A stretch of 64,000 nucleotides of DNA from contig OZ024740.1 in assembly GCA_964016885.1 (NCBI GenBank), positions 57,598,001 to 57,662,000 on the forward strand, in the 5' to 3' direction. Source of the DNA: Eledone cirrhosa (lineage: Eukaryota). The translations under genes and the position numbers were made by a program. Each line of letters starts with the position of its first letter. The stretch's first letter is position 1. Shown one piece after another: positions 10,522 to 51,262 of this stretch. The notes under the pieces are model-generated. The model made no database searches. It was not told the DNA's origin and was given only the letters and a program-made list of their open reading frames with translations.

Positions 10522-10871
10522 ATCATCATCATCATCATCATCATTTCATTTTACGTCCGCTTTTCCCTACTTGCAAGGGTGGGATGGGAACTGATTCTGG
10601 CTTGATTTCTACAGCTGGATGCCCTTCCTAACACCAACCTCATTTACAGTGAGTGCTGGGTGCTTTTTTGCCGTGGCACCTCCACGACCACTTTGCAGTG
10701 GAATGATAGGGACCCCAGTCCCTATCATCTCATTCCTACAGCTGAGTAAACTGGAGCAATGTGAAATAAAGTGTCTTGCTCAAGGAAACAACACATCACC
10801 CGGTCTGAGAATTGAACTCACAACCTTTCGATTGCAAGCCCAATGCTCTAACCACTAAGCCATGTGCCTCC
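10522..10871 (-). mobile_element. tRNA-derived SINE with RTE-B-derived 3' tail
   Basis: Near-exact reverse complement of 23083-23425; A/B-box-like head; (GAT)n tail. Confidence 0.9.
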
Positions 10872-22418: not shown

Positions 22419-22435
22419 ATAAAAGCACTGGATAT

Positions 22436-22478
22436 GTAATCCTGATGATTTCTAATAAGAATGAAACGCGTAGGTTAC
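22436..22478 (+). ncRNA. Type I hammerhead ribozyme (copy 1)
   Basis: gtaatc-CTGATGA-t-ttct-aata-agaa-t-GAAA-cgc-GTA-ggttac; predicted cleavage after 22472. Confidence 0.9.
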
Positions 22479-22747
22479 TTCCCTTGCTTTTATCGAGAAT
22501 CTCAAATTGTAATACGTGACGTATTCTATTCTATGGCGATTGGGTCTTCGAAATGTTTATTATAAACATACAGAATATTTTCGAATATTCTATGTTTGTC
22601 TTCACATATATATCGCTATTTCAGAGCATTATATCCAAATTCTAATTTCTGCCGGACCGGCAACCGCTCTTTCAAACCAGTTCCTGTACACAGCTAAGTA
22701 TTCTATAAGTCTCTAGCTGTGTCATTCTCGATAAAAGCACTGGATAT

Positions 22748-22790
22748 GCAATCCTGATGATTTCTAATAAGAATGAAACGCGTAGGTTAC
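22748..22790 (+). ncRNA. Type I hammerhead ribozyme (copy 2)
   Basis: Identical core; stem I extended by attctcgataaaagca / tgcttttatcgagaat; predicted cleavage after 22784. Confidence 0.9.
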
Positions 22791-22912
22791 TTCCCTTGCT
22801 TTTATCGAGAATCTCAAATTGTAATACGTGACGTATTCTATTCTATAGCGATTGGGTCTTCGAAATGTTTATTATAAACATACAGAATATTTTCGAATAT
22901 TCTATGTTTGTC

Positions 22913-23468
<556 letters not shown>

Positions 23469-45817: not shown

Positions 45818-48350
45818 ATCATCATCATCGTTTAACGTCCCTGTTCCACGCTTGCATGGGTTTGGACGGGGGTTTTCCCACTTGAGGCAATAGAGGTTGT
45901 CTTGCTCGCATAGGACTGTCTGGCGGGTTTTCTACAGCTGGATGCCCTTCCTAACACCAACCACATTTACAGTGTGGGGCTGGGAGGTTTTTACCATGTT
46001 GCCTACATGGCCACATTACAGCGTGGACTGTCTGGCGTGTTTTCTACAGCTGGATGCCCTTCCTAACACCAACCACATTTACAGTGTGGGACTGGGAGGT
46101 TTTTACCGTGTTGCCTACATGGCCACATTACAGCGTGGACTGTCTGGCGTGTTTTCTACAGCTGGATGCCCTTCCTAACACCAACCACATTTACAGTGTG
46201 GGACTGGGAGGTTTTTACCGTGTTGCCTACACGGCCACATTACAGCGTGGACTGTGTGTTTTTTGTCGTGACACCTACACGATCTCATTTGTTTCGGCCT
46301 GGATGTTGTGGCACCAACATAACTTTGCATTGAAGGGGTTGGTGTGGATGGGGTGGGACGGGGGTGTATTTTGTTAGAGATGCCTACTGACTAGTAGGTT
46401 TTACTTTGTATTTAGGTAAGGCGGGTCTTCTCTGTTACTGAGTACCGCCAAAGGTCTCGGTCCAGTGACATTGTCTTGGAGAGGTGTAAGTGTGTGAGGT
46501 CGGAATTTATCAGCTCGTCCCAGGTTTTCCTGGGTCTGCTTACTCCGTGGCTACCATCTATCTTTATTGCCCTGCACTTTGTTATACAGCTGTCGTCTTT
46601 CATGCGCATCACGTGACCATACCAACGTAGCCTTCTCTCGAGTAAACAACATCTGATCCCTCTTATTTTTAATTTTTTCCTTAGTTCGTTTATGCTTTGC
46701 CGTTCACGTATATTACTATTACACATCCAGCCGAGCATGCAAGCTTTGTTCCTCTCTAGTCTGCGTATATCCTCTGCACACAATGCCCAGGTCTCACTGC
46801 CATGCAACATTGCTGTTCCTATGCAGGCATCATACAACCTGCCTTTCATTTTTAGGGAGAACCCTTTAGCGGCTAATAGTGGTATAAGCTCTCTGAACTT
46901 TTTCCATCCAGTTCTGACTCTAGCTACTGTACTTTCAGAGCACCCTCCCCCACTGCTGATTTTGTCACCCAGGTAACGGAAGCTGTCCACTATTTCTATA
47001 GAACCCTCTGCGCAATTGAAAGAGTTAGTATTTTGTAGGCACTTGCTGCTACTTATTGCATCAGAGCACCGGCCACATGTAAAATCTGTGTTCTTAGTTA
47101 GCTTACCTGTGATCCCACTACATCTTTTATGCACCCATACTTTGCATTTGGGACATAAAATGGAGTTTCTACCTACGCCTTTCCTACACACTGAGCATGG
47201 CCATTTCCCGGAGGGGACCGGCGCCTTATTTTCTTTCCTACAAACTAGAACTTTAGTCTTAGCCAGGTTAATTTTAAGGCCTTTTGATTCTAGGCCGTGC
47301 TTCCATGTTTGGAATTTCTTCTCTAGCTCGGCCATTGATTCAGCTATGAGCGTTAGATCATCTGCATATAGGAGTTCCCATGGGCAGCCGGACTTGAACT
47401 CCTCTGTTATAGCCTGAAGGGCAATAATAAATAGTAGGGGGCTAAGGACAGAGCCCTGATGGACACCAACTTTTACGCTAAACTCTTCACTATATTCGTT
47501 GTTAATTCTAACCTTGCCAACTGTTTCTTTATACATGGCTTGTATGGCTCTCACAAGCCATTCGTCAACACCTAGTTTTCTAAGAGCCCACCAGATAATG
47601 GAACGGGGGACTCTGTCGAAGGCTTTCTCCAAGTCGACAAAAGCTAAGTATAGGGGTTTACTTTTAGCTAGGTACTTCTCCTGTAGTTGTCGTACAATGA
47701 AAAGAACGTCTGTGGTACTTTTGCCTGACACAAACCTGAACTGCATTTCATCTAGATCAATTCTCTCTCTGATTAGTTGCGCTATTACTTTTTCCGTGAC
47801 CTTCATGACCTGGTCGATTAATTTAATGCCTCTATAGTTACTCCTATCTAGGGCGTCTCCTTTACCCTTGTAACAGTTAACGATGATGCTGCCACGCCAG
47901 TCCTTCGGAACAACCCCATTCTGTATGACTTGGTTTACTATCCGGGTGACCATGGTGTGTCCCACCGTACCGGAGGCTTTCAGCATCTCAGCAACTATTT
48001 CCGAAGGCCCAGCCGCCTTACCCGTCTTCATATCTTTGATTGCCTTACTTATTATACTACCTTCGACTAACACTGCTGGTCCCTCTACTGGGTTGATGTG
48101 GGGGAGACTGTCTTTCTCCCATTTATTCTCCTCATTTAGTAGCCTTTCGTAGTGACACTTCCAAGCTACCTTCTTATCAGCATCAGTGATGGCAAGTACG
48201 CCATCATCGTTAAGTACACACTTCTCCCCGACAATATCACAGTTTTCCTTGACACATTGCCTAGCAATCCTGAACACCTTACGTTTTTGGTCCTCGCATT
48301 GTAGAACATGCTTGAACTTTCTTTCCTCTGCTTCCCTTCTTGCGAAGTAT
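45818..48350 (-). mobile_element. 5'-truncated RTE subfamily A with triplicated 3' UTR segment
   Basis: Open RT frame 46412-~48350; (GAT)n tail. Confidence 0.95.
45913..46255 (-). repeat. 3 x 112-bp tandem repeat in RTE 3' UTR
   Basis: Units start at GGACTGT at 45913, 46025 and 46137; normal sequence resumes at 46249. Confidence 0.95.
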
Positions 48351-48395: not shown

Positions 48396-48845
48396 TTCTA
48401 TGAGACGTTAATGCTCACTACCTCCCAAATAACCGACAGTGACTACATAGTTATCGCTGGCGACCTAAATGGTCACATTGGACAACATTGTGATGGCTAT
48501 GACGGAATCCATGGAGGCTATGGGTTTGGTACTAGAAATGAGGAAGGCTCCAGAATCCTGGAATTCTGTGACGCAAATAACCTAACTATCTGTAACACTA
48601 ACTTCAAAAAACGAGACAATCACTTGATCACCTATAGATCGGGGGAACACAGAAGCCAGGTAGATTATATCCTTACCAGAAGACGTGACAGAGTGTCTGT
48701 TGTAAACACTAAATCCCTCCCCCCATGAAGAATGCACCTCTCAATATAGACTCATAATTAGCGACCTCATAGTCAGGACGAGACGTACTCGACAACAGAA
48801 GAGGACTATCCTCAGGAGAAAAATATGGAAGTTAAAGGACCCCAA
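48396..48845 (+). mobile_element. Inverted RTE-A endonuclease fragment
   Basis: FYETLML..GDLNGHIG..SQVDYIL; reverse complement of ~57435-57890. Confidence 0.92.
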
Positions 48846-49097
48846 AGCCAAACTGCATTTCATCTAGATCAATTCGCTCTCTGATTAGTTGCGCTATAAC
48901 TCTTTCTGTGACCTTCATGACCTGGTCAACTAACTTAATGCCTCTATAGTTTCCCCTATGTAGAGCATCCCCTTTACCCTTGTAGCAGTTAATGATGATG
49001 CTGCTATGCCAGTCTTTCGGTATGACCCCATTCTGTATTACTTGGTTAACAATACGGGTGACCATAGTGTGTCCCACCATACCAGATGCCTTCAGCA
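48846..49097 (-). mobile_element. RTE RT internal fragment
   Basis: LKASGMVGHT..DEMQFGF. Confidence 0.9.
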
Positions 49098-49099
49098 AC

Positions 49100-49227
49100 T
49101 ATATATTTATTTGGTTCCTTTATCGGTTTCGCAGTTGTGAGAAAAACCACAGACCGTCCATCTCAACTCTACTTTTGAAAAGCGGAAGAACTGCGAAACC
49201 GGTAAAGGAACCAAATAAATATATATA
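49100..49227 (+). mobile_element. TA-flanked mini element: HHR plus inverted copy of its 3' tail
   Basis: Inverted repeat 49101-49136 / 49189-49224 overlapping the HHR 3' half. Confidence 0.85.
49172..49207 (+). ncRNA. Minimal type I hammerhead ribozyme, U3:A8 variant
   Basis: ctt-TTGAAAA-gcgg-aagaa-ctgc-GAAA-ccg-GTA-aag; palindromic ACCGGT; stem I is short. Confidence 0.75.
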
Positions 49228-49340
49228 TTTTTTTTAAAAATAAGACTCCAGTTGCATTTTCAATTTCACCTTTTTTTATTTATACTTTCACTCGTGTAGG
49301 ACACCTCAGTTATTTTTCATTTTGTAAAAGAAAACCTCAC

Positions 49341-49378
<38 letters not shown>

Positions 49379-49381
<3 letters not shown>

Positions 49382-49610
49382 AAAAAGTATGACCCCGATG
49401 GCAGAGCTCAAGGCGTTTCGACGGCTATTTCTGGACTCTTTTTCCTATTTCCCACTCTACTACCCAAGTATTGAGTACTCTGGTGCGTTATGGTCCATCT
49501 GGTTCCTTGAGTACTTAATACTTGGGTAGTAGAGTGGGAAATAGGAAAAAGAGTCCAGAAATAGCCGTCGAAACGCCTTGAGCTCTGCCGTCGGGGTCAT
49601 ACTTTTTCCT
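49379..49610. mobile_element. TA-flanked fold-back palindrome (102-bp arms, 28-nt loop) related to the 50711 HHR
   Basis: Arm end gtccagaaatagccgtcgaaacgccttgagctctgccgtcggggtcatactttttcct matches 50763-50820. Confidence 0.92.
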
Positions 49611-49641
<31 letters not shown>

Positions 49642-49755
49642 AGTCCTATGCGAGCAAGACAACCACTCTTGCCTCAAGTGGGAAAACCCCCGTCCAAACC
49701 CATGCAAGCGTGGAATACGGACGTTAAACCTGATGATGATGATGATGATGATGAT
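49642..49755 (+). mobile_element. RTE-A 3' stub
   Basis: agtcctatgcgagcaagac..ggacgttaaacc(tga)n. Confidence 0.9.
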
Positions 49756-49776
49756 ACAAAGTGTTGAAACCATCAA

Positions 49777-49874
49777 ATTTTAGTTTAGAACATTTTTTAG
49801 CTGACAATTGTTTCTTCCAGAGGGAAGTCTGGAATCATCGGAGTATAAGGAATGTCGAAACATGTAACTAAAAT
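49777..49874 (+). ncRNA. Decayed long-stem-II hammerhead ribozyme (5' core lost)
   Basis: attttagt/actaaaat stem I, paired stem II, GAAA-cat-GTA intact; CUGANGA replaced by ttagaa. Confidence 0.55.
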
Positions 49875-50710
49875 CCTAGTCATTTAGAACATTTAGGTAC
49901 ATAATTGTTATTAGTGCCAAAGGCATCATGTGGAGAGTCAGGAGTTAAAAAGATGTTCTGCTTGAAAGAACACAATTACAGCCAGCACTGGTTGGAAGTG
50001 TAATAGGTATAATTAAAAAGCACAAGCAAAAAAATATCATAAGCTAGAAAAAACACAGGCAAAAAAGTTATAAGCAAGGAAAATTGGTGTACAATGCAGG
50101 AGTCGTCAATGCAGGAGTCGTCAATACAGTTAATAAGGCATGTATGAGGAAAGAGTTATAATTCAGTTGAAGTACACATATTTTGTGTGGGATGTTAAAG
50201 CATGTTATAATTGTTATAAGTGTTTAAGATAGTGTGCAATTTGTTATAACAATTATAACAATTATAACATCTAGCAACTCATTCTATAGCATTAGCCGAA
50301 ACTAAATATAGCAGCTGTGTTAGACTCCTTAGTTTTTGTTTTATTTCACTTCTCACTTTCCAATCTTATATTCTGATATATCTTTCTCTCATTTTTTATT
50401 ATATTCTTTTTTATTATATTTTTTCATTGTCCCCTAATCTCATTTGATTTACTTTTCTACAACGTCCCTCCTCCATTTTCTAAAGAAACCTTTTTTCGCC
50501 AACCTCCTCTGGCCTACTTTCATACACATTCCTTAGAATTTGCCGTAGATTTCACCTTCAATGCTTGACCGGCTCTACCCACTCCCCTATCGTTCTACAG
50601 GCAAGTTCAGCCACCCCACCCCACACCCACTGCCATGATAGATTTTCTGTGTCTGCCACAAACTTTGACCAATCCTCTTGACAACTACAATCTTCCCATA
50701 TAAGGAAGTA

Positions 50711-50806
50711 CCCCTTGAAAAGTTTGGCTATTTATTTACCAGACTAAAAAACTCTTACTTTAGTCCAGAAATAGCCATCGAAACGGCTTGAGCTCTGCCG
50801 TCGGGG
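50711..50806 (+). ncRNA. Type I hammerhead ribozyme, U3:A8 variant, extended stems II and III
   Basis: cccc-TTGAAAA-gtttggctattt..aaatagccatc-GAAA-cggc-ttgagctct-gcc-GTC-gggg; stem I extension ggaagta/tactttc; (TA)n follows at 50821. Confidence 0.88.
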
Positions 50807-50888
50807 TCATACTTTCTCCTATATATATATATATACACATACATATATGTACATATATATATCATCTTGATATATATATATATATATA

Positions 50889-51262
50889 CAGAAGACCCAA
50901 CTTCCCATGGGCACAAGCCAAAGCTGAAGCATATAGACAGTATGTCCACCACCCCCTCCCACTGTAAAGTGCTCAAAAAAGCACCCAGTCCACTCTGTAA
51001 AGTGGTCGTGTAGGAGACATAGCAAAAAGCACCCAGCACACACTGTAAATATGGTTGGCATTAGGAAAGGCATCCAGCCGTAAAAAGCTGGTCAGAAACA
51101 GTCCTATATGAGAGAAACACGGTTACCTGACTCAACTTGCCTCAAATGGGGCAAACCCATATAACCCACTCTAGCGTGGTAAATAGACGTTAAATGATGA
51201 TAATCATCATCATCATCATCTTTTAAACATTCATTTTCCATGCTAGCATGGGTTAGACGGGA
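50889..51262. mobile_element. Two RTE-B-type 3' ends, tail to tail
   Basis: Plus-strand tail 50889-51203 and minus-strand stub 51204-51262. Confidence 0.75.

Follow-up and report, generated by a model that had tools for sequence, protein, structure and literature searches.

A palindrome and a hammerhead in the window

The window analyzed here is a stretch of 64,000 nucleotides of the Eledone cirrhosa genome (assembly GCA_964016885.1, contig OZ024740.1, positions 57,598,001 to 57,662,000, forward strand; genome size 3.0 Gb). It contains a 232-bp palindrome (49379-49610) with (TA)n on either side, lying within the (TA)n that follows the tail of an insertion of another hammerhead family (family 2, 49100-49347), and, further downstream, a longer and separate copy of the palindrome's own family (family 1). 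Coordinates are those of the window; positions within family 1 are numbered from the end of hammerhead stem I, which is position 0.

49100..49347, plus strand: mini insertion of family 2, with a 37-bp mirror arm at 49100-49136 and a sense arm from 49137
49347..49378: left flank, a (TA)n target microsatellite adjoining the tail of this second Penelope-like insertion
49379..49437, minus strand: outer left arm, element -58..0, the tail-less end
49438..49508, plus strand: element -8..0 and the first 62 nt of the 85-nt tail, including the unpaired spacer 49481-49508
49509..49551, minus strand: return copy of tail +34..+1 and of 0..-8, beginning at the self-complementary GAGTACT(C) of the tail
49552..49610, plus strand: outer right arm, -58..0; 49552 is the stop hotspot of the family and a predicted transcription start
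49611..49641: (TA)n-rich right flank, beyond which there is no mirroring
50268..50822, plus strand: longer, separate, 5'-truncated, tail-less copy of family 1 (3' UTR/pLTR)
50703..50820, plus strand: type I hammerhead predicted by folding, core UUGAAAA at 50715-50721 (U3-A8), stem II at about 50722-50779, GAAA at 50780-50783, predicted cleavage after 50802
50729..50735, plus strand: TATA-like TATTTAT, a putative promoter element 33 nt before the stop-site A at 50762

The arms of the palindrome (49379-49480 and 49509-49610) are 102 bp each with 2 mismatches, and the 28-bp spacer between them (49481-49508) is asymmetric and unpaired. A first-pass annotation of this DNA had seen both arms ending with the 3' half of a hammerhead and lacking the 5' core, and this description holds: aligned with 50762-50820, the outermost 59 bp of either arm show 93-95% identity and comprise the stem II 3' strand, GAAA, stem III, the cleavage triplet and the stem I 3' strand without the 5' core. 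The same annotation placed a very long stem II and the point of fold-back within the palindrome, which is not what the inner sequence contains. In each arm, the inner 43 bp consist of the final 9 nt of stem I and then the first 34 nt of the family 1 3' tail, and the spacer is further tail sequence, so that the centre of the palindrome lies 3' of the ribozyme, in the tail, and not at stem II or loop II. In family coordinates the order is reverse -58..0, forward -8..+62, reverse +34..-8, forward -58..0.

Among the best genomic matches, 28 other loci span one arm plus the spacer and none is a 232-bp palindrome; in longer copies the sequence of the inner arm and spacer is an optional extension immediately 3' of stem I. 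Two variants common to both window arms are missing from all 204 arms and all 99 tails of the position-picked loci, and one arm was therefore copied from the other. The window copy is one ordinary stump of the family doubled about a point in its tail.

The hammerhead of family 1

The region 50700-50822 folds as a type I hammerhead (z -3.1) with the three-way junction, a conserved core, a free position 7 and a paired 3-8, in line with the intact ribozyme that had been annotated at 50711-50820. Rfam at its gathering threshold called no hammerhead in the window and named two tRNA-like SINE heads alone. In 76 long copies position 8 is A throughout and position 3 is U in 70, positions 4, 5, 6 and 9 are each kept in 74, and free variation is confined to position 7. 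This is the substitution pattern of a real hammerhead core with a U3-A8 swap. C3 occurs in 4 of the 76 copies, and a few long copies (L363, L365) combine C3 with A8, a broken core pair. By eye, the stem II 3' strand at -47..-30 could pair with the stem III 5' strand in an RNA beginning at -58.

The U3-A8 variant has been described in the pLTRs of Schistosoma PLEs of the Cercyon type, together with opposite-strand motif pairs 100-700 bp apart (PMC4209133). Family 1 hammerheads differ from those of the Cercyon elements in that stem III has its full 5 bp and stem II is long and interrupted, and the short copies of family 1 hold only half a ribozyme.

Other repeats in the window

A fourth hammerhead unit, canonical and minimal, is present at 22420-22930 as two head-to-tail copies with a distance of 312 bp and (TA)n flanks; they may be either retrozyme-like or a partial tandem of a PLE. 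The tRNA-like heads at 10805-10862 and 23089-23146 score just above the Rfam threshold and probably belong to tRNA-derived SINEs; we presume that the SINEs of this genome resemble those of octopus. SINE-like fragments with (GAT)n tails occur at 49640-49755 and 50900-51220. Fragments at 47731-47988, 48500-48860 and 48843-49100, which include a 258-bp direct repeat at 87%, contain what we take to be LINE-like endonuclease and reverse transcriptase pieces. Between 24001 and 34000, long stretches have a GC content of 5-12%, apparently a very long TA-rich microsatellite.

The parent element is a Penelope-like retrotransposon

Long copies of family 1 have an ORF upstream of the hammerhead. In one locus (L083) the order is hammerhead, tail, ORF, 3' UTR, hammerhead, tail, and the period is 3101 bp; elsewhere four tail-ORF junctions lie about 3.54 kb apart in tandem. 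Family 1 shares with EN+ Penelope-like elements a tandem or partial-tandem pLTR organization with a hammerhead, a single reverse transcriptase (RT) ORF (here with a YRDD motif), 5' truncation, inverted 5' copies and an optional one-sided tail. A structure model of the ORF (pLDDT 86) matches reverse transcriptases including TERT (E ~4e-5). A homologue search found 1133 relatives, mostly unnamed; Pfam gave no RT match on pieces of the ORF, and a PDB sequence search was likewise without useful match. A C-terminal GIY-YIG endonuclease is proposed by motif only (VIY...YIG...R...E...N at the ORF end) and was named by neither library nor fold match for the ORF.

The ORF motifs LRWRT, SDKTG, CNCPDRSTC, CNLC and CKH correspond to the RWR, DKT, CxCX5C, CxxC and CxH of the Hydra clade, and a CCHH motif was not seen in the ORF by eye. 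Our first assignment, to Neptune, was replaced on these motifs. As described for the Hydra clade (PMC8557442), there are RW(K/R), DKT, a CxCX5C linker and CxxC plus CxH around conserved E and N, a C-terminal endonuclease and (TA)n targets; in family 1, TA repeats adjoin 42 of the 47 ends that lack a tail and 34 of the 39 tailed ends that were scored. Membership of the Hydra clade fits these motifs and targets. Family 1 differs from that clade in its unit of 3.1-3.5 kb (under 3 kb there), its U3-A8 core (canonical there) and its tens of thousands of copies. Exact 26-mer matches, which are lower bounds, number 8,814 for the 3' end, 38,015 for the tail and 407 for the tail-ORF junction. At L352-L355 (G000:C1:91.475-91.489 Mb) and in similar sets, units of family 1 form near-identical tandem arrays with a period of about 3.54 kb; arrays of this kind, with ORFs that stay open over 502 codons or more in the loci inspected, are a young subfamily.

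The window palindrome is therefore a doubled stump of a Penelope-like retrotransposon and not a DNA-transposon MITE. A non-LTR retrozyme identity was also considered and rejected: such elements are defined as head-to-tail short repeats each with a complete hammerhead (10.64898/2026.07.22.740005), and the copies here are head-to-head stumps with half a ribozyme.

Mirror stumps with a common edge and one tail

The anatomy of the family was read from the first 100 of the 8,814 matches to a 3' anchor, all on contig C1. Stop positions were taken with this anchor because two samples drawn with other queries were biased by those queries. The 100 matches gave 101 arms, probably with one duplicate. The 3' ends fall into two discrete classes, 47 at +5 or less and 52 at +80 or more, with 2 between. 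The 5' ends cluster at -51..-65 (77 arms, the calls at -65 being mostly -58 arms lengthened by chance similarity), with 9 nearer (-23..-49) and 15 further. Fifty-five of 86 insertions parsed as inverted pairs, 53 of them with exactly one tail; a recount gave 54 of 56 (p 4e-14 against 50%). The automatic "solo" class contained some unparsed pairs; 12 short copies are truly mirror-less, and 9 of these stop at -51..-63. The edge is also seen in 5 of 30 family 1 copies that run into the ORF, which begin at -52..-60 behind a mirror arm.

Exact mirror centres in distal stem II number 13,869 genome-wide against 0 in the control. The centre at stem II that the first-pass annotation proposed for the window copy is thus found across the family, and the arm lengths vary between copies as it had anticipated. 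An arm extends beyond -70 in no more than 2 of 56 pairs, so loop II, to which it had proposed mapping the centres, and the 5' strand are normally absent. Copies vary in total length between about 60 bp and several kilobases, and most of 91 centres inspected are unique.

Of 36 clean junctions, 15 have a longer tail-less arm, 16 a longer tailed arm and 5 arms of equal length; the other 20 of the 56 pairs were left out of this recount for mutation-inflated fillers (ungapped walk) or for their tail count, and the unfiltered pairs give 25, 24 and 5. Both arms carry the same subfamily letter at -50 in 36 of 36 pairs, so their templates were one RNA or sister RNAs. Short self-templated fillers (e.g., GAAAT) and one favoured joining register are common at the junctions, and some local snap-back occurs during joining.

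Inverted copies with one-sided tails are known features of PLEs (PMC8557442, PMC3846280). As these sources describe them, EN+ Penelope-like insertions resemble those of family 1 in having a head-to-head inverted, 5'-truncated copy with a tail at one end, a pLTR with a hammerhead, and microsatellite targets. Unlike the insertions described there, those of family 1 are mostly minimal stumps that share a sharp 5' edge, located at a TATA-spaced site, and the tail is about 85 nt rather than 30-40.

The stop site follows a TATA-like box in three families

The modal edge of family 1 is the A of TTAGTC or TCAGTC, a motif that we take to be initiator-like. TATTTA lies 31 nt upstream of the stop in 16 of 19 long copies, and the stop falls 29-33 nt after the box overall; in another subfamily, TATTTAAA precedes TTAGTC or TCAGTC by 29 nt. 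As a TATA box, that of family 1 is non-canonical. The spacing was tested in two further hammerhead families of the genome.

Family 2 has 13,151 genome matches, from which 70 loci with 74 arms were taken. Forty of the 74 arms end within -1..+8 of the point exactly 30 nt after TATAAAA, 9 further downstream and 5 at -4..-45, the remaining 20 being long. The stop lies about 40 nt upstream of an intact ribozyme core and is also the 5' base of a weak hairpin. The family 2 insertion beside the palindrome contains a complete minimal U3-A8 hammerhead, a palindromic stem III and a tail, and its sense arm (from 49137) begins 4 nt after the TATA-spaced start of its family. The family 2 ORF is known from one GIY-YIG-like C-terminal endonuclease fragment, upstream in L265.

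Family 3 (L162, L121, L128, L283 and others) has a canonical CUGAUGA core, mirror stumps and a one-sided tail; no ORF was found upstream of its long copies. TATAAATA lies 35-39 nt before the hammerhead core, and 34 of 46 arms end 0..+22 from the point 30 nt after it, with a mode of 0 and none at -1..-6; 8 of the rest are long, and 4 upstream calls resemble alignment overrun. Families 2 and 3 stop outside stem II at the TATA spacing, and the stop is therefore not tied to stem II: across three families it follows the spacing from the box, at what we predict to be start sites. A rough post hoc estimate puts the chance of a box at the observed spacing at 0.03-0.12 per family.

A hand count of the base following the -58 edge in 100 arm ends (50 of 3,295 centres) gave A in 61, C in 21, G in 15 and T in 3. 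The A may be templated by the T run at -59..-61 or may be untemplated, so the edge is not single-base. C accounts for 21 of the 39 non-templated first bases beyond the -58 base of the cDNA and is what a copied cap would add; this is suggestive only, because for about half of these ends a templated CAG filler is an equally good reading. We also considered a 3' splice site (YAG) at the edge and set it aside, as arms usually keep the AG and mirror-less copies lack a common upstream exon. Transcription starts inside the pLTR have been described for Penelope and Chlamys-3 (PMC2377424, PMC8557442). Our search of the openly readable literature found no report tying PLE truncation hotspots to transcription starts; subscription papers may bear on this point.

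A model for the origin of the stumps

We infer dual priming, run-off at the transcript 5' end, end joining and, in the window copy, a later fold-back, and give this reading as a whole a probability of about 0.7. The element would be transcribed from a TATA/initiator promoter inside the pLTR, with the RNA starting in the stem II 3' strand at -58. Its RT-endonuclease would cut both strands of a (TA)n target, with a first cDNA beginning at +85, where the tail ends, and a second at +2, the pLTR end. If these signals are used in their 5' copy, some 60 or 140 nt of synthesis would bring each cDNA to the RNA 5' end. Both cDNA ends would then be nibbled, given short fillers and joined head to head, yielding a hairpin element of about 200 bp with a tail on one side only. 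In the window copy, the resulting stump (the tail and 9 nt joined to a -58 arm) would have been doubled when the DNA folded back at GAGTACTC in the tail, with rejoining inside the (TA)n flank.

The enzymology has a precedent in the anole Poseidon element PAc, which in vitro cuts and extends both strands of AT-rich targets, starts reverse transcription at two internal sites bounding the tail, makes cDNA whose length is set by the template 5' end, and is predicted to be a dimer (PMC11167929). Unlike the stumps seen here, the products described in the accessible part of that report include neither joined mirrors nor a truncation hotspot at a start site.

Alternative explanations

The first-pass annotation explained the palindrome by a single (TA)n-primed cDNA that copies into stem II, snaps back and copies itself; a related self-priming proposal has been made for PLEs (PMC3846280). 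To leave one tail, the endonuclease would also have to trim the return arm at +2. This reading has in its favour the family centres in distal stem II, the shared -50 letter, and the fillers and favoured register noted above, and we still find it quite improbable. A tail-initiated copy-back must have the tailed arm furthest 5', and a +2-started cDNA cannot gain a tail; two cDNAs are favoured for this reason, and snap-back is largely refuted for the pairs in which the tail-less arm is the longer. Units without overlap cannot be copy-backs, the window's own stump, whose arms overlap by only 9 nt, being an example. The scarcity of pairs passing -70, the mirror-less copies that share the stop site, and the stops of families 2 and 3 outside stem II also speak against it. 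Alternatively, two cDNAs may be involved with a stop set by a structural or protein roadblock or an RNA cut instead of a transcription start. The family 1 stop does lie within a helix and that of family 2 at a hairpin base, the edge is a few bases wide, and the start site is a prediction from genome sequence. We nevertheless regard a roadblock or cut as unlikely: arms seldom end where stem III or stem II would be entered from the 3' direction (the 9 of 101 at -23..-49), there is no peak at -18, the predicted position of the ribozyme cut, and TATA spacing is the sole feature common to three families of different fold.

Amplification of a few non-autonomous master copies together with their junctions would account for centres that recur, such as a 16-nt centre present in 8 of 91, and is hardly plausible given that the remaining centres are mostly unique and that the commonest centre, found in two subfamilies, can have the tail to its left or to its right. 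Little more credible is that the doubling in the window arose in assembly or from a chimeric read: tail-centred mirrors are rare (6 loci in a pattern search, including the window copy), but the window arms differ at 2 of 102 positions and the five other loci each have a different junction. Contigs of one sample compared with the locus span neither its junction nor its flank. A true Tc1/mariner-type MITE with a TA target duplication, for which the argument is the inverted ends and the TA flanks, which are microsatellites here, has almost no probability. Its ends would be shared with an element encoding a DDE transposase, and here they are the 3' end of an RT-encoding element; the first-pass annotation had likewise proposed a MITE look-alike made by retrotransposition rather than by a transposase. 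Copies of uniform length with terminal inverted repeats at both very ends, which would have pointed to a transposase, are likewise absent from a family of such variable lengths, arms and centres, one end of which carries an 85-nt extension.

Implications

By itself the window locus is a minor, rare rearranged copy. In retroviruses and LTR elements, minus-strand strong-stop DNA is a run-off product at the RNA 5' end, and in L1 twin priming both target ends are primed in one insertion. The stumps described here differ in that they would be target-primed and integrated as such, and in that their arms usually overlap, unlike those of twin priming. More tentatively, and with considerable doubt, most insertions of these families might be integrated pairs of "strong-stop" cDNA, with the enzyme acting on the tail signal near the RNA 5' end, both strands primed and run-off at the cap, and full-length copies arising via an LTR-like strand transfer. 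If so, each mini-palindrome would record a transcription start, and full-length copies would need a jump from the run-off end to the matching pLTR sequence at the RNA 3' end, a transfer that would regenerate the pseudo-LTRs. A promoter overlapping stem II would then keep the 5' ribozyme incomplete and the 3' one whole.

The origin of the inverted copies, one-sided tails and pseudo-LTRs of PLEs is described as unresolved in the literature consulted. The natural junctions of this genome, thousands in number, speak for two cDNAs rather than self-priming and indicate that the stop is fixed. If our reading is true, PLE promoters could be located by their truncation edges with nothing more than a genome sequence, and animal repeat libraries may contain many retrotransposon stumps among their TA-flanked "MITEs".
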